From a virus (taxonomy: Duplodnaviria; Heunggongvirae; Uroviricota; Caudoviricetes): 10,271 nucleotides of DNA. Positions 2,497-9,572 of this stretch are shown one piece after another (the first letter of the stretch is position 1; each line of letters starts with the position of its first letter). A model generated the notes under the pieces. It saw only the letters and a program-made list of their open reading frames with translations. It was not told the DNA's origin and did no database searches. The translations under genes and the position numbers were made by a program. The stretch is taken from IMG/VR virus record IMGVR_UViG_2917855067_000001, positions 1-10,271 of that record. One strand, given 5' to 3'.

Positions 2497-2526
2497 AGGA
2501 AAGAAAAAAGGGGCGAATGCCCCTTA
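2497..2526 (-). terminator. Rho-independent terminator directly after the c2 stop codon
   Basis: On the minus strand, hairpin GGGGC-attc-GCCCC (plus 2510..2523) is followed by TTTTTTCTTTCC. Confidence 0.65.
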
Positions 2527-3174
2527 TGGAAGGTTTGCTATTTTTGCATCGACAACTACACCGATGATTTTGCAGTTCCCGTTGATCTCAATCATCGGAT
2601 ATTGTGGGTTAAGTGGTTTTAGAAACCTTCTGCCAGCATCAATAACTAACTTCTTGAAAGTTGCCTCGTTTTCTCCTTCGAGCTTTGCCACTACCAGCTT
2701 CCCATTACGAGGTTCTACTTCAGGATCGACTAGTATTATCATCCCTTCCGGGATGCTAAGACCGGCTGGAGCCGTCATCGAATCACCCTTTACGTCCAGC
2801 CAAAACGAATCTTCTGAACAATCTACGGTTGTATCGTACCAGTTATCTATTGCACGCTTATGATATGGCTCTACAGCTTCCATCCAACATCCTGCGCTTA
2901 CCCAACTAATTAGAGGATACGAACCTCTTGGATCATGCCTGCTGTGATAGGCAATGTTTGAAAGACTATCTTCTCCTTTCAACAAGTAATCAGGGGAGCA
3001 CTGCAAAGCCTTGGCTAAGGCCAATAGGTTTTCGCCATTGGGCTCAGTTTCAGAACGCTCCCATTGGGAAATAGCAACATTAGACACGCCAACCATCTTG
3101 CCAAGGGCAGCCTGCCTAATCTTGAGTTCTTTTCTGCGAGCGCGAATACGCTCACCCATCAGTTGTGTATTCAT
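2524..3174 (-). CDS. c2: Prophage repressor, P22 C2-type (LexA/S24 peptidase family, lambda cI functional analogue)
   Basis: 216-aa ORF MNTQLMGERIRARRKELKIRQAALGKMVGVSNVAISQWERSETEPNGENLLALAKALQCSPDYLLKG..., near-identical to my recollection of P22 C2. N-terminal HTH and C-terminal S24 autocleavage domain (..GDSM.., ..KIIGVVV..). Divergent from cro across an operator-rich intergenic region. Confidence 0.92.
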   Translation of the reverse strand: MNTQLMGERIRARRKELKIRQAALGKMVGVSNVAISQWERSETEPNGENLLALAKALQCSPDYLLKGEDSLSNIAYHSRHDPRGSYPLISWVSAGCWMEAVEPYHKRAIDNWYDTTVDCSEDSFWLDVKGDSMTAPAGLSIPEGMIILVDPEVEPRNGKLVVAKLEGENEATFKKLVIDAGRRFLKPLNPQYPMIEINGNCKIIGVVVDAKIANLP

Positions 3175-3861: not shown

Positions 3862-4023
3862 ATGACAAAACGTCGTAAGAAATACCAGGAAAAAGAAGAG
3901 ATTCGACACCCTGATTCACCTGAGGGATTAGTGGTAGCCGCAGCAAATAACAGGGCGTTCGCAGAGCGCCTTGTTGGTGTTTACAGACTAGCCAAAGCAG
4001 GAGTGAAACATGGGCGTCGTTAA
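3862..4023 (+). CDS. Hypothetical small basic protein between c1 and the O-like gene
   Basis: ATG at 3862 preceded by AGGAG at a good spacing. Product [53 protein letters not shown]. Its 3' end overlaps the O-like start by 14 nt. No family recognised. Confidence 0.4.
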   Translation: MTKRRKKYQEKEEIRHPDSPEGLVVAAANNRAFAERLVGVYRLAKAGVKHGRR

Positions 4024-4831: not shown

Positions 4832-6204
4832 AACAGGATATCGAAGCGAGCGTTATCGGTGGCCTGCTGATTGGTGGATTAACACCAACCGCCAGCGACG
4901 TTCTGGCAACGCTGGAGCCGGAAGCGTTTTCAATTCCGCTCTACCGGAAAGCCTTCGAGGTTATCCGCAAGCAGGCGAGAAACAGAAACCTAATCGACGC
5001 GCTGATGGTTGCCGAGGCGTGCGGAGAGGAGCATTTCACGTCAATCCTGATGACCAGCAAAAACTGCCCGAGTGCCGCAAACCTGAAGGGATATGCCGGA
5101 ATGGTCGCGGATAACTATCACCGCCGTCTGGTGCTGGAAATCATGGATGAAATGCGTGAACCAATCCAAAGCGGAACCATCGACGCATCGAGTCAGGCGA
5201 TGGATGAACTTGTAAAACGGCTCTCAGCCATCAGAAAGCCCCGTGACGAGGTTAAACCTGTACGGTTAGGGGAAATCATCACTGACTACACTGACACGCT
5301 TGACAGGCGTCTGAGGAACGGAGAAGAGTCAGATACCCTGAAGACCGGAATCGAAGAACTTGACGCCATCACCGGAGGGATGAACGCGGAAGACCTGGTG
5401 ATTATCGCCGCTCGTCCTGGTATGGGGAAAACCGAACTGGCGCTGAAGATTGCCGAAGGCGTTGCAAGCCGCGTTATTCCTGGTTCTGACGTCCGGCGCG
5501 GAGTATTGATTTTCTCGATGGAAATGAGCGCATTGCAGATTGCAGAGCGAAGCATTGCCAACGCCGGGAGGATGTCGGTTAGCGTGCTGCGAAATCCTGC
5601 ATCGATGGATGACGAAGGCTGGGCGCGCGTTGCTAACGGCATGAGTCAGCTTGCAGATTTGGATGTATGGGTAGTCGATGCCTCGCGGTTATCTGTCGAA
5701 GAAATTCGCTCAATCGCAGAACGACACAAACAGGAAAATCCAAACCTGTCACTCATCATGGCGGATTATCTTGGCCTGATTGAGAAGCCGAAAGCAGACC
5801 GCAACGACCTCGCAATTGCTCACATCTCAGGAAGCCTTAAGGCGATGGCGAAAGACCTGAAAACGCCTGTTATCTCCCTAAGTCAGCTTTCACGCGATGT
5901 TGAGAAGCGACCAAACAAACGCCCGACAAACGCAGATTTGCGTGATTCAGGAAGCATTGAGCAGGACGCAGACTCAATCATCATGCTCTATCGGGAAGCG
6001 GTATATGACGAGAACAGTAGCGCCGCGCCATTTGCTGAAATCATCGTGACGAAAAACCGTTTTGGCTCACTTGGTACGGTTTACCAGCGGTTCTGTAACG
6101 GACACTTTGTTGCATGTGACCAGGATGAAGCCAGACAGATTTGCACAGCATCAAATGCACCTGCTGCGCGTGGCAGACGATATGCACAAGGGGCTGACGT
6201 ATGA
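4828..6204 (+). CDS. Replicative DNA helicase, DnaB family (P22 gene 12-type)
   Basis: 458-aa ORF with DnaB-like N-terminal domain and a Walker A motif ([15 protein letters not shown]). Translationally coupled to the O-like gene. Confidence 0.9.
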
Positions 6205-6281
6205 CCATCTACATCACTGAGCTAATAACAGGTCTGCTGGTAATCGCAGGCCTTTTTATTTGGGGGAGAGGGAAGTCATGA
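6201..6281 (+). CDS. Putative small hydrophobic peptide (26 aa)
   Basis: ATG 6201 overlaps the helicase stop (ATGA). Product [26 protein letters not shown] is a single hydrophobic helix. Its stop overlaps the ninB ATG. Not in the ORF track because it is below the length cutoff. Confidence 0.3.
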
Positions 6282-6766
6282 AAAAGCTAACCTTTGAAAT
6301 TCGATCTCCAGCACATCAGCAAAACGCTATTCACGCAGTACAGCAAATCCTTCCAGACCCAACCAAACCAATCGTAGTAACCATTCAGGAACGCAACCGC
6401 AGCTTAGACCAGAATCGAAAGCTTTGGGCTTGCCTTGGTGACGTCTCTCGTCAGGTTGAATGGCATGGTCGCTGGCTGGATGCAGAAAGCTGGAAGTGCG
6501 TTTTTACAGCAGCATTAAAGCAGCAGGACGTTGCTGAGGTAACAGGCGCAACAGTAACCAGCATAAATCAGGCTGCGGCTAAAATGGCGCGGGCAGGAAT
6601 CTTAGTCATTGATGGTAAGGTCTGGCGAACGGTGTATTACCGGTTCGCTACCAGGGAAGAACGGGAAGGAAAGGTGAGCACGAATCTGATTTTCAAGGAG
6701 TGTCGCCAGAGTGCCGCGATGAAGCGGGTTTTATTTGTTTATGCGGCGGGGGGAGGAAATCAGTGA
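6278..6766 (+). CDS. ninB: NinB/Orf-family protein (recombination mediator) with divergent C-terminal half
   Basis: From ATG 6278 (Shine-Dalgarno GGGGGAGAGGG upstream), the first ~87 residues [85 protein letters not shown] match recalled lambda NinB. The remainder (AEVTGATVTSINQAAAKMARAG...) diverges from lambda but keeps a family-like pattern. Confidence 0.75.
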   Translation: MKKLTFEIRSPAHQQNAIHAVQQILPDPTKPIVVTIQERNRSLDQNRKLWACLGDVSRQVEWHGRWLDAESWKCVFTAALKQQDVAEVTGATVTSINQAAAKMARAGILVIDGKVWRTVYYRFATREEREGKVSTNLIFKECRQSAAMKRVLFVYAAGGGNQ

Positions 6767-6768
6767 GG

Positions 6769-6798
6769 TTGACGATAACTAATATCTGGCGCTATATT
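6769..6798 (+). promoter_or_regulatory. Sigma70-like promoter candidate just after ninB
   Basis: TTGACG (6769..6774), 18-bp spacer, TATATT (6793..6798). Motif match only. Confidence 0.3.
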
Positions 6799-6861
6799 CT
6801 GTGCGTTGCCGCAAAATCGGCACACGGGATTGGCGTCCCGGATAAGGTAATCGCGACTACT

Positions 6862-6887
6862 ACACGCCGCGAGCGTGTTTTTTATTG
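6862..6887 (+). terminator. Rho-independent terminator candidate
   Basis: Hairpin ACACGC-cgcga-GCGTGT (6862..6878) followed by TTTTTTATTG. Confidence 0.55.
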
Positions 6888-6923
6888 TCGTAAGCATACG
6901 CACATCTGAATTATGGTGGGGCG

Positions 6924-7017
6924 TGTAGGGCCGACTTCGGTCGGGCCGGTTGATTACCCCGGTTACGCCAACCCTACATGTCTCACCACCAAACTGATTG
7001 GCGTCAGCGGTGGTGGT
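6924..7017. repeat. Cluster of GC-rich palindromes (structured element upstream of the Bro-N gene)
   Basis: TGTAGGG (6924..6930) pairs with CCCTACA (6972..6978). Inside: a hairpin GGCC-GAC-ttcg-GTC-g-GGCC with a UUCG-type loop (6929..6947), then GGTTG...CAACC (6948..6973), then CCACCACC-loop-GGTGGTGG (about 6984..7016). Nature unknown. Confidence 0.35.
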
Positions 7018-7041
7018 TAACTTGATTTATAGGTAATCATC

Positions 7042-7647
7042 ATGAGCACACAACTAGTCTTTCATCAAACAAAATTCCATCCTGTTAAACACAACAACAG
7101 TATCTGGCTTACTGCCGTTGAGATTGCTCAAGCTCTCGGATATAAAAAATCTGATGCCGTAACTCAGATCTACGATCGAAATTCCGATGAATTTAGGGCA
7201 GATATGACTGAGACCCTCAATTTGAGTGTCTCAGGGAACTACCAGAAAACAATACGCATTTTCTCCCTCCGTGGTGCCCATTTGATCGCTATGTTCGCCC
7301 GCACTCCTGTAGCCAAAGAATTCCGCCGCTGGGTTCTGGATATTCTCGATCGAGAAGTTCAACAATCCCCAATCACAAAACAATTCACTGATAACGAACT
7401 TTGCACACTCGCCTGGTTATGGCGAGCAGGGGATGTGATGTTAACCGCCTGCCAGAATGTTACTCCACTTCTTCAGGTTGCGGAGCATCGCGAAGCCGGT
7501 CGCTTTACTTCTATTGAGCAAGAATATCCCCAGATACTACATAAGGCGCGCGAAATCCTTGCCAGAGAAACGGCACATGTAAGATTCCAGCCGTGGCAGG
7601 ATGATAAGTGGAGCCGAGTATTGCCGCATTTGCGTTCTGAGCAGTAG
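7042..7647 (+). CDS. Bro-N domain protein (antirepressor / Roi-like family)
   Basis: 201-aa ORF. The N-terminal ~105 aa carry Bro-N-like motifs (..SIWLTAVEIAQALGY.. and ..IRIFSLRGAHLIAMFARTPVAKEFRRWVLDIL..). The C-terminal half is unassigned. Confidence 0.7.
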   Translation: MSTQLVFHQTKFHPVKHNNSIWLTAVEIAQALGYKKSDAVTQIYDRNSDEFRADMTETLNLSVSGNYQKTIRIFSLRGAHLIAMFARTPVAKEFRRWVLDILDREVQQSPITKQFTDNELCTLAWLWRAGDVMLTACQNVTPLLQVAEHREAGRFTSIEQEYPQILHKAREILARETAHVRFQPWQDDKWSRVLPHLRSEQ

Positions 7648-7828
7648 CAATAAAGTTTCCGGTGAGAAATGTCACCAGCATTTTGTTATGAAACGGGTAT
7701 TGGCGGTATATGGGGGCGGGGCTTTAGTTATTAGGTGTCGAGAATTAATTGTTTGTAGCAATATAAAAAGGAGCGCTTAAGTCCGTTTATTTTTTTTAAG
7801 CTTCATATACATAGTGGATAAAAATGAG

Positions 7829-7853
7829 AACCACCCGCTGAACGGGTGGTTTT
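7829..7853. terminator. Terminator hairpin between convergent genes (possibly bidirectional)
   Basis: AACCACCCG-ctgaa-CGGGTGGTT followed by TTTT on the plus strand; the complement is followed by a T-rich tract on the minus strand. It lies between the Bro-N gene end (7647) and the orphan gene end (7928). Confidence 0.6.
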
Positions 7854-7927
7854 GCGCAAGTTAAATTTTATAATTTCAGTGAATCTTTACGCTGTAATAA
7901 TGCAAATGATAGTTGAAAAAAACACAA

Positions 7928-8605
7928 TCAGTCGATGGATTCTCCGTAGGATGCAACTGCCTGAGCGACGCAAAAACGATCAATACACTCTATTTCTCCA
8001 TAATCACGCAGGCAATAATAAGTATTATTGTCTTTATCAAAAGCGTAAATGCTACAAATACCCTCAAGCTCACAACTTGCGTCCCATCCACTATTAGATA
8101 ACGTGCCCCATTCCTGGTAAAGCCCTGCGTTAACTTCTCGATTGATAATATGCGGTCCACTATAGTTATCATAATCGTAACTATAGATGTCACGTGCCTC
8201 AGGAAAATTCCCGTTCATGTTTTCAATCCACGGTAAAATATCTTTAACTGAGTTATAAAGTTCAATGCTGTATTTGAAAAAACGCTTCACAATAAAAACA
8301 TAGATGCCGGCAGATTTGTTTGTTGATTTATCAGTGGCGAAAATGACAAAAATCTTCCCAACGCACTTTTCATCTACGCCCGGAAAAGTTACTGTGCCAT
8401 CCTGGCTAACCGCCAGAACATTATTGTCTGCATTAGTGCTACAGGTCCATTTTACCTTGTCATTATTAATAGGGTCATTATCAATGACCATCTTGAAGGT
8501 TGCTCCTGGGAACAAACTGTTAGGGAAACAGTAACCACTCTCCATATCATTTTTAATATCATAGATATGGCTATCAACTAACACGCCTGTAATTTTGCTC
8601 ATCAT
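7928..8605 (-). CDS. Orphan AT-rich hypothetical protein (moron candidate), opposite strand to the phage early operon
   Basis: Long open frame on the minus strand within visibly AT-rich DNA, where long chance ORFs are unlikely. Probable start is ATG-ATG at 8605/8602 with AGAGAG upstream, giving MMSKITGVLVDSHIYDIKNDMESGYCFPNSLFPG... of about 225 aa (the track's TTG start at 8650 is less likely). Cys- and Asp/Asn/Tyr-rich C-terminal part, no obvious signal peptide. No family recognised. Confidence 0.6.
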   Translation of the reverse strand: MMSKITGVLVDSHIYDIKNDMESGYCFPNSLFPGATFKMVIDNDPINNDKVKWTCSTNADNNVLAVSQDGTVTFPGVDEKCVGKIFVIFATDKSTNKSAGIYVFIVKRFFKYSIELYNSVKDILPWIENMNGNFPEARDIYSYDYDNYSGPHIINREVNAGLYQEWGTLSNSGWDASCELEGICSIYAFDKDNNTYYCLRDYGEIECIDRFCVAQAVASYGESID

Positions 8606-9018
8606 TGAACTCTCTTTGTTTGTTAAATAAAAAGTTTTATTCCTGAACAACGGAACACGCTGATATTAATGCAGCCAATGAATTGTTGTTGTTATTTGGA
8701 GGTTATATAGTGGTATGAATGTTATTATGCGATGTCTCTGAGTGATGGGGTAAGGATTATATGATTCGCTTTTGAGATTTACCTATGTCAGGCGTTGCTG
8801 TTCATGTTCGTCCCCGTTGTCAGTCTTCTTAGTCTGAGCTAATGTCATCATCAATGGGTTATCAGTTTTCTCTGAAGTTATATAATTAATTGAGCGCCAT
8901 AGCACCATGGGGCATTGTTGAATTTCATCTTCAATTGATTTTCCATAATCAACTCGCCATAATCATGTCATCGGAGCCTGAACACCTCCGGTGACTTCTG
9001 CGCTAAACGGGGACGTTT

Positions 9019-9120
9019 ATGCGCACACACAATCTAAACTCTCTTCTCCCTTCACAGATGCAGAAATGCACCTGCGATTTTTTGCATCCAACGTTTGACC
9101 TCTGCGGAGGTGAAGCGTGA
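9019..9120 (+). CDS. ylcH: Small ORF, ylcH-like (33 aa)
   Basis: ATG 9019 to TGA 9118..9120 gives [33 protein letters not shown]. Its stop overlaps the ybcN GTG start, the position ylcH holds upstream of ybcN in DLP12. Sequence match to ylcH is not verified. Confidence 0.35.
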
Positions 9121-9572
9121 ACCTCCCACAAGACGGCATCAAATTACATCGCGGCAACTTCACCGCTATCGGTCAGCAGATCCAGCCTTATCTGGAGGAT
9201 GGCAAATGCTTTCGCATGGTGCTTAAACCGTGGCGCGAGAGACGCAGTCTTTCCCAGAATGCACTCAGCCACATGTGGTACAGCGAAATCAGTGAGTACC
9301 TCATCAGCAGGGGTAAAACGTTCGCTACTGCAGTATGGGTAAAAGATGCACTCAAACACACATACCTCGGTTATGAAACCAAGGACCTGGTTGATGTCGT
9401 AACCGGCGAAATCACTACGATCCAGTCGTTACGCCATACCTCCGATCTTGATACCGGAGAGATGTATGTCTTCCTGTGTAAGGTTGAAGCCTGGGCGATG
9501 AATATTGGCTGCCACCTGACTATTCCGCAGAGCTGCGAGTTCCAGCTGCTGCGCGACAAGCAGGAGGCGTAA
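9117..9572 (+). CDS. ybcN: YbcN-like protein (DLP12-type; Orf/NinB-family, reported base-flipping protein)
   Basis: 151-aa ORF from GTG 9117 with GGAGG 6 nt upstream: [67 protein letters not shown]..., matching recalled E. coli YbcN. Confidence 0.85.

Follow-up and report, generated by a model that had tools for sequence, protein, structure and literature searches.

An IsrK-family small RNA gene ahead of a C4 RNA and an antirepressor gene in a lambdoid prophage

Described relatives and the locus

The closest described relative of the element studied here is IsrK of the Salmonella prophage Gifsy-1, a verified small RNA that has its own promoter and a terminator that is partly read through (Hershko-Shalev et al. 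2016, PMC4825925). The isrK promoter has been shown to drive isrK-anrP transcription, which passes through the terminator into orf45-anrP and yields a long RNA that is not translated (PMC4825925). STnc1160 is a processed RNA derived from this read-through transcript (PMC4825925). IsrK supplied in trans from a plasmid raises anrP translation 114- to 171-fold, and the activation requires base-pairing, as demonstrated by compensation between C18U and G173A (PMC4825925). Two up-mutations, G28A and G31A, have compensating partners in C162U and C159U, and IsrK-G28A and IsrK-G31A are inactive in trans (PMC4825925). IsrK mutations also act in cis (Table 1D and 1F of PMC4825925). Full activation of anrP needs translation of orf45, and constitutive expression of STnc1160 failed to counteract IsrK toxicity (PMC4825925). 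The authors of that work compare IsrK to seqA of phage P4 and STnc1160 to the P4 CI RNA (PMC4825925).

A second described system is the immI region of phages P1 and P7. The P1 record annotates immI as a P1c4 promoter followed by a1, b1, c4, a2, b2, icd, and ant, with b2 as the site of icd-ant translational repression and with a1 and b1 only as "putative" C4 target sites in the c4-icd-ant mRNA. The P1 C4 RNA is matured from a precursor transcript by RNase P. The two RNA families of immI are c4-a1b1 (RF03163) and C4 (RF01695), which form clan CL00128; both motifs were catalogued by Weinberg et al. 2010 (PMC2864571). A third point of comparison is tR2 of phage lambda, the terminator that lies between ren and ninB.

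The DNA analyzed here, referred to as the window, is a stretch of 10,271 nucleotides. Pfam and PHROG annotation identifies it as the early-right region of a lambdoid prophage, and in addition to the proteins listed in Table 1 it encodes a P22-type Cro, CII, O, and a DnaB-like helicase. A 240-aa ORF at 7928-8650 on the minus strand had no match in Pfam, PHROGs, PADLOC, or a phage tblastn search. None of the complete E. coli genomes carried more than 55% of positions 6200-7700 in one place, and the window is therefore a mosaic that is absent from that collection. IMG/VR contains exact copies of the region upstream of ant, for example in L001.

An earlier reading of the window from its sequence only had drawn attention to the segment 6769-6887 as a unit of one promoter, two hairpins, and a terminator located after ninB. 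The placement is roughly right, since the upstream ORF consists of an N-terminal part of NinB fused to a C-terminal part of Ren. That reading missed the larger arrangement, of which the unit is the first part: the IsrK RNA, a C4 RNA, and an antirepressor gene (Table 1). As set out below, the unit is very probably isrK, the 5′ module of a P1-immI-type RNA switch with the order IsrK (a1/b1), C4 (a′/b′), a2/b2, and antirepressor.

Table 1. Coordinates of the RNA control region and neighboring genes in the window
Feature	Position	Strand	Remarks
Sigma-70 promoter of isrK	6769-6798	+	10 of 12 consensus matches; conserved position; activity predicted
IsrK-family sRNA, ~79 nt	6805-6883	+	Rfam RF01394; 5′ end 6805 predicted
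Hairpin 1, TGCCG-CAAAAU-CGGCA	6807-6822	+	Folding and covariation
Hairpin 2, CGGGA-UUGGCG-UCCCG	6825-6840	+	Loop 6830-6835 is the a1 box
b1 box, GGUAAUC	6846-6852	+	Single-stranded stretch between hairpin 2 and terminator
IsrK intrinsic terminator	6862-6883	+	Stem-loop 6862-6878, U-tract 6879-6883
C4-type antisense RNA	6909-6993	+	RF01695; equivalent of Gifsy-1 STnc1160; b′ loop UGAUUACC 6951-6958, a′ box CGCCAA 6966-6971
35-codon ORF overlapping C4	6913-7020	+	Positional analogue of Gifsy-1 orf45; possibly translated
a2 box, TTGGCG	6998-7003	+	Downstream of C4; corresponds to a2 of the P1 record
b2 box, GGTAATCA	7032-7039	+	Overlaps Shine-Dalgarno AGG (7031-7033) of the antirepressor gene
Antirepressor gene, 201 aa, Bro-N + P22_AR_C	7042-7647	+	PF02498 (1.9e-13), PF10548 (1.7e-15)
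N-like protein	1900-2205	−
CI-like repressor	2524-3174	−
NinB	9117-9572
RusA	from 9959

Family identity of the small RNA

The individual motifs were found where the sequence-only reading had put them. The sigma-70 promoter has its −35 element TTGACG at 6769-6774 and its −10 element TATATT at 6793-6798, separated by an 18-nt spacer, and both hairpins are present as described. The terminator stem-loop ACACGC-cgcga-GCGTGT is likewise present, but the run of six T residues reported to follow it contains five (six if the last T of the stem is counted). The run is followed by an A and then by TT. A hairpin energy of −7.6 kcal/mol was calculated for the terminator. A transcript from 6805 to about 6883 would be 79 nt long, in agreement with the length of about 80 nt predicted earlier.

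Judged on this single sequence alone, the unit is no better than chance. A scan of 1.8 kb found one promoter-like site against 2.5 expected in shuffled sequences and four terminator-like sites against 2.1 expected. Folding of the predicted RNA gave −24.1 kcal/mol with a z-score of −0.33, which is no better than shuffles. The unit is counted as real because of homology and covariation.

Scanning the window against Rfam at gathering thresholds returned two matches, isrK (RF01394) and C4 (RF01695). The isrK model matched 6807-6883 over its full length (positions 1-77 of 77) with 61.2 bits, against a gathering score of 50, and an E-value of 2e-11. The c4-a1b1 model also matched over its full length (positions 1-53 of 53) at 6792-6844 with an E-value of 2e-9; its score of 41.9 bits falls just short of the gathering score of 46.7, unlike that of P1, which scores 51.0 bits. 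In Gifsy-1, c4-a1b1, which belongs to the same clan as C4, overlaps isrK with 48.1 bits. Conversely, the isrK model recognizes the a1/b1 leader of P1, including its hairpin and U-run, with 35 bits (E = 7e-6). IsrK and the a1/b1 leader are thus two names for one piece of RNA. The unit at 6805-6883 is an isrK gene, a copy of an already described prophage small RNA, and is not new. The earlier suggestion of a compact small RNA gene, some 80 nt long and driven by a promoter of its own, is borne out by the full-length family match and by the verified status of the Gifsy-1 prototype (PMC4825925). The Rfam description of the isrK family is of an Hfq-binding RNA, and the RNA of the window would be expected to bind Hfq as well.

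The window and Gifsy-1 (NC_010392) share the order and spacing of isrK, C4, and a Bro-N-type antirepressor gene (STM2616 in Gifsy-1). The two IsrK sequences have 77% nucleotide identity, with the Gifsy-1 RNA scoring 79.3 bits on the isrK model, and the C4 regions are 74% identical. The promoter geometry TTGAC(A/G)-18-TATATT, the three hairpins, and the terminator sequence, which is identical, are also held in common. However, hairpin 1 has another, shorter stem in the window, and the b box reads GGUAAUC rather than the UCACCG of Gifsy-1. The genomic settings differ as well. In Gifsy-1 the module is directly downstream of the Q-like antQ and the antirepressor gene is followed by isrJ, whereas in the window the module follows the ninB′-′ren fusion in the early nin region and the Rfam scan detected no isrJ after ant.

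The 5′ end of the RNA was put at 6805 because this numbering places G28 and G31 of Gifsy-1 inside the loop UUGGCG. With Gifsy-1 numbered in this way, its transcript starts at the seventh base after the −10 element, which corresponds to G6805 in the window.

Structural covariation in homologues

Homologous loci were collected from IMG/VR and from species-representative genomes via the antirepressor protein together with an IsrK loop pattern. The collection comprises at least 59 distinct modules and at least 36 distinct C4 hairpin-2 sequences, and includes loci from Pectobacterium, Xanthomonas, and Escherichia whittamii. In viral contigs, the loose pattern GCAAAATC-N(7-11)-GATTGGC had at least 120 matches. 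Chance matches among these, such as L095, L098, and L127, were filtered out on the criterion of a T-run downstream together with CGCCAA and a second TTGGCGT. A stricter 27-base pattern applied to contigs of one genome per species found five loci only, two in Pectobacterium and one each in Xanthomonas, Escherichia whittamii, and Escherichia sp. Because both loops, GCAAAATC and GATTGGC, were fixed by the pattern used for collection, their invariance and that of the a box are partly a selection effect.

The RNAalifold consensus of 40 distinct IsrK sequences contained exactly the three helices described in the sequence-only reading. Across these homologues 96.4% of the cells in paired columns could pair, and 117 cells carried double changes, compared with 34.3 in shuffled alignments; none of 500 shuffles reached 117. 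Compensatory double changes occurred in 10 of the 18 base pairs. As a control, sliding the partners by one to three columns lowered pairing to 29-40% of cells. Of the helices, hairpin 1 varies most and is fully compensated, with compensatory double changes in six of the seven stem pairs of the family alignment. For example, columns 8-17 hold AU in 17 sequences, CG in 14, GC in 8, and UA in 1, with none unpaired. The window has a 5-bp version of this hairpin in which the two outermost pairs of the family stem are mismatched. Hairpin 2 was paired in 100% of cells in the 40 sequences. For the terminator, two of five pairs show compensatory changes in the family, and the terminator and its U-tract are kept in all 40 homologues, which indicates that a discrete short product is conserved.

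The covariation also bears on whether the segment encodes protein. Two ORFs on the mechanical ORF list cross it, a 69-codon GTG ORF at 6700-6909 on the plus strand and a 47-codon ORF at 6760-6903 on the minus strand. However, the plus-strand ORF has no Pfam match, the substitutions among homologues are paired stem changes, and the indels and hypervariability of the b box would shift the reading frames. With an RNA family match above the gathering score besides, a protein-coding origin of the signal is barely credible.

The position of the promoter is likewise constant. Among the matches listed, most of the 59 modules have a −10 element whose end lies 12 nt upstream of the closing GC pair of hairpin 1, in the same alignment columns, and most modules listed have the 18-nt spacer between the −35 and −10 elements. 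Upstream of the −35 element the sequences are unrelated between these modules. The same position is found in unrelated contexts: after Q in Gifsy-1 (TTGACA-18-TATATT), after ren in the window, and in P1, Pectobacterium, and Xanthomonas. Because its position is fixed while the upstream flanks are unrelated, the promoter is, by this comparison, part of the module and no chance match.

The sequence-only reading had offered as an equal possibility a tR2-type pR-operon terminator that N antitermination would override, with a promoter match due to chance; on this view the hairpins would be incidental. Several features fit such a reading. Like lambda tR2, the IsrK terminator is of the intrinsic type and belongs to a similar part of the lambdoid early-right operon; its nin-region site, past the replication genes and a ren-like 3′ end, is also the place that tR2 occupies in lambda; the window encodes an N-like protein; the number of promoter-like matches in the 1.8-kb scan does not exceed chance expectation; and any intrinsic terminator here would also stop unmodified transcription from pR. 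However, the lambda tR2 sequence (AGGCCTGCTGGTAATCGCAGGCCTTTTTATTTGG) matches the window at 6230-6253 and not at 6862-6883. This true homologue of tR2 is located 600 nt upstream of the unit and upstream of the ninB′-′ren ORF, and the IsrK terminator has no sequence relationship to tR2. The combination of a tR2-type terminator and a chance promoter is rejected on this ground. The full-length IsrK match above the gathering score, the conserved promoter position, and the covarying hairpins also count against it, and we regard it as very improbable. The IsrK terminator may nevertheless stop unmodified pR transcription as a side effect, a secondary role in the nin region.

Complementary boxes in IsrK, C4, and the antirepressor leader

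The C4 RNA begins 25 nt after IsrK. It matched RF01695 over the full model (positions 1-87 of 87) with 74.2 bits against a gathering score of 45 (P1 c4 scores 68.8 bits). As to maturation, the window has just the conserved CACCACC tail at the 3′ end of the C4 model. The gap between C4 and the ATG of the antirepressor gene is only 48 nt, and the product of this gene matches PHROG anti-repressor Ant families (e.g. phrog_245 at 4e-52).

The a1 sequence UUGGCG, which forms the loop of hairpin 2, is complementary to the a′ box of C4 and is repeated downstream of C4 as a2. The 9-mer ATTGGCGTC that includes this sequence has plus-strand copies in the window only at 6829-6837 (a1) and 6997-7005 (a2), with 0.13 expected. 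Residues G28 and G31 of Gifsy-1 fall in the a1 loop and C159 and C162 in the a′ box CGCCAA, and the window keeps this pairing base for base, between 6832 and 6969 and between 6835 and 6966. Since the Gifsy-1 mutations map to the a1 loop and the a′ box, the genetically proven pairing is the a1:a′ interaction.

The b1 box is complementary to nucleotides GAUUACC of the C4 loop (6952-6958) and identical to the core of b2 (7032-7038), and b2 is complementary along its full length to 6951-6958 of the C4 loop. Between module types the b box is hypervariable, yet it changes in step at its three sites, namely IsrK, the C4 loop, and the leader or ribosome-binding site of ant. Specifically, b1, b′, and b2 read GGUAAUC, GAUUACC, and GGTAATCA in the window; UCAAAACGA, UCGUUUUGA, and TCAAAACGA in L008; CUACUCAA, UUGAGUAG, and CTACTCAA in L019; and GAAAAAGG, CCUUUUUC, and GAAAAAGGA in L154. 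Among the 36 types listed, the longest exact complement between IsrK and C4 had a median length of 8 nt for cognate pairs and 5 nt with the C4 of other modules, and the medians were likewise 8 nt (cognate) and 5 nt (non-cognate) between leader and C4. Two modules that differ in their boxes occur together on one viral contig.

Energy calculations discriminated less well. Cofolding of IsrK with its own C4 gave a gain of −4.0 kcal/mol, compared with about −1 kcal/mol for non-cognate C4, and since these gains are small the cofold evidence is weak. RNAduplex applied to the long partners produced sprawling duplexes with large loops. Of 500 shuffles, 3 scored beyond the IsrK-downstream duplex and 1 beyond the C4-leader duplex; these results were not relied on.

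The arrangement resembles immI of P1 and P7 in the order of its parts and in having an antirepressor as output. P1 and the window agree in a distance of 32 nt from the −10 element to the start of a1, in a leader that ends with a hairpin and a U-run, and in a b2 that covers the ribosome-binding site of the next gene. In the window b2 ends 2 nt before the ant ATG and, unlike in Gifsy-1, is positioned directly on the Shine-Dalgarno sequence. In 25 of the 36 module types listed, the end of b2 is 7-12 nt from the automatically chosen start codon, i.e. over the ribosome-binding site. The boxes of P1 are different sequences (a, UUGACAG/CUGUCAA; b, GUUAGUG/CACUAAC), which are again mutually complementary. 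P1 also differs in having icd between c4 and ant, translationally coupled, where the ORF list of the window contains no icd-like gene between C4 and ant. The P1 promoter P2c4 is under a C1 operator, whereas no operator was identified in the window. The window derives from a lambdoid and not a P1-like phage.

The immunity region of P4 (seqA - CI RNA - seqB/seqC) is similar in having a small, C4-related processed RNA with complementary sequences upstream and downstream, the upstream copy being in the leader of the same transcript (PMC4825925). It differs in that the P4 CI RNA causes premature transcription termination of replication genes and does not block translation of an antirepressor (PMC4825925).

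The ORF that overlaps C4 is shorter in the window (35 codons, with its stop 21 nt upstream of ant) than in Gifsy-1 (45 codons). In the 36 module types listed, ORFs starting from the ATGG at the 5′ end of C4 range from 14 to at least 108 codons and run in three frames through the conserved core. As judged from this comparison, the ORF at 6913-7020 is no conserved protein. The published Gifsy-1 model uses orf45 translation; the variable frame and length of the ORF and the position of b2 on the Shine-Dalgarno sequence bear on which route activation may take in the window.

Proposed action of the switch and its meaning

By analogy with Gifsy-1 and P1, most transcripts from the isrK promoter would stop at the IsrK terminator (6883) and give the 79-nt small RNA. 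The terminator is predicted to be of modest strength and would let some transcripts read on into C4 and ant, producing a C4-ant mRNA. The wording "attenuator" in the title of the sequence-only reading is partly apt, as the Gifsy-1 IsrK terminator is partly read through (PMC4825925). The C4 segment of the read-through RNA would keep translation of ant off, either in cis, through pairing of the middle of IsrK with the 3′ half of C4 as in structure A of Gifsy-1, or through a processed C4 RNA acting on a2/b2. Free IsrK acting in trans would mimic the a2/b2 target and pair with the C4 segment, so that the ribosome-binding site would be freed and antirepressor made. Synthesis of the antirepressor would push the prophage towards induction. 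The b box would decide which IsrK works with which C4 and ant. IsrK may act either on free, processed C4 as a decoy or by remodelling the long mRNA; the failure of STnc1160 to counteract IsrK toxicity in Gifsy-1 makes a poor fit to a simple titration model.

An alternative is that a1/b1 is a 5′ leader or attenuator acting only in cis, which would matter only in the long transcript by sequestering C4 or setting the frequency of read-through, with the short RNA as a by-product. The annotation of a1 and b1 in the P1 record, solely as putative C4 target sites within the mRNA, agrees with this idea, as do the cis effects of IsrK mutations in Gifsy-1 (PMC4825925) and the minimum-free-energy fold of 6805-7060, in which the middle of IsrK pairs with the 3′ half of C4 in cis, like structure A. 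However, short IsrK supplied from a plasmid activates anrP in a pairing-dependent manner that is lost in G28A and G31A (PMC4825925), the terminator is conserved with compensatory changes and a U-tract in every homologue aligned, and the Rfam description names an Hfq-binding RNA. An exclusively cis-acting leader is therefore unlikely, and the trans-acting IsrK of a P1-immI-type switch is preferred.

For annotation, we propose that 6805-6883 be labeled isrK and 6909-6993 a C4-type antisense RNA. Together they make up the RNA control of the antirepressor gene (7042-7647), probably an induction switch of the lambdoid prophage. The element itself brings no new biology, being IsrK/c4-a1b1 in its usual partnership with C4 and an antirepressor. 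The modest addition is a comparative picture: across many module types, the three copies of the b box change together, and the promoter moves with the module. At the level of sequence comparison, these two features support the view that Gifsy-1 IsrK and the a1/b1 leader of P1 are the same device in many specificity classes.

A broader idea, which we put forward tentatively and with more doubt than conviction, is that IsrK-type RNAs are general target mimics (anti-antisense RNAs) of their own C4, and that a b box of 7-10 nt defines dozens of orthogonal classes of antirepressor switch. The co-variation of the b box at three sites fits this idea, and at least 36 C4 loop types were found. P1/P7 heteroimmunity and the c4-a1b1 motif of Weinberg et al. 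2010 already carry the concept implicitly. If the idea is correct, prophages residing in the same cell could trigger each other's induction, or stay insulated from it, via RNA alone.

The chimeric ninB and its surroundings

The open reading frame called ninB upstream of IsrK is composite. The match to NinB (Pfam positions 2-110 of 131; phrog_72) covers residues 5-106, and that to the C-terminal portion of lambda Ren (phrog_142) covers residues 88-163. The gene order P - ren - ... - P22AR antirepressor is present in E. coli prophages (H41/L207). Judged from these matches, the chimeric frame looks like a recombination scar in which a truncated ninB has been joined to a ren-IsrK-C4-ant segment. 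A second, divergent NinB is encoded further downstream. This protein is full-length and has no similarity detectable by BLASTP to the NinB part of the chimera, which makes positions 6525-9116 look like an insert with a remnant of ninB on one side and an intact ninB gene on the other. At positions ∼7650-9000 the GC content falls to 36-40% (flanks ∼50%), forming a low-GC island. Its 240-residue ORF gave nothing in Pfam, PHROGs, PADLOC, or a tblastn search against 50,697 phage records and may be an orphan moron gene.

Features of the window discussed in this part
Feature	Position	Strand	Remark
lambda tR2 terminator homologue	6230-6253	+	loop carries GGTAATCGC
chimeric "ninB" ORF	6260-6766	+	NinB N-terminal match and Ren C-terminal match
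orf45-like ORF overlapping C4	6913-7020	+	start at conserved AUGG of C4 5' stem
240-aa ORF in low-GC island	7928-8650	-	no match in Pfam, PHROGs, PADLOC, or phage tblastn
second NinB, full-length, divergent	9117-9572	+	phrog_72 at 1.6e-51

Sequences shared or conserved around IsrK and C4

The 9-mer in the loop of the tR2 homologue also forms the IsrK b1 box (6846-6854), and because of this identity the terminator loop is likewise complementary to the C4 loop. The window contains 7 copies of the heptamer GGTAATC where 1.08 would be expected, and none of 200 shuffles has as many. Flanking similarity is absent among the remaining copies (4108, 4760, and 10010), and the recurrence, including the copy in the terminator loop, may be coincidence.

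The spacer immediately 5' of the isrK -10 element (6783-6792) is kept in many modules as TATCCGGGGC-TATATT; the window version is ATCTGGCGC-TATATT. This conservation exceeds the requirement of a promoter, and a regulator may bind to the spacer. Among the 36 module types, the ORF that resembles Gifsy-1 orf45 varies in length, from 14 codons to 108 or more, and is read in three different frames; a conserved peptide product appears unlikely.

IsrK-C4 modules in other elements and hosts

The P1 a1/b1 leader (L205, 4231-4312) terminates with a hairpin and U-run to which the isrK model aligns (35 bits, E = 7e-6), so a short RNA of the IsrK kind may be produced from P1c4 in this phage too. In the P1 record, a1 and b1 are listed solely as putative target sites. 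Outside the Enterobacteriaceae, the IsrK-C4-leader module is present in full, and with b boxes that match, in L201 (Xanthomonas sp. Leaf131), L171, and L200/L204 (Pectobacterium), the terminator hairpin being longer in the L201 and L171 modules. One viral contig, L144 (IMGVR_UViG_2872180393_000005), carries two modules, at 3965-3988 and 7227-7250. Their b boxes differ (UACGGA and UCGAAAC), suggesting two orthogonal switches within a single element.
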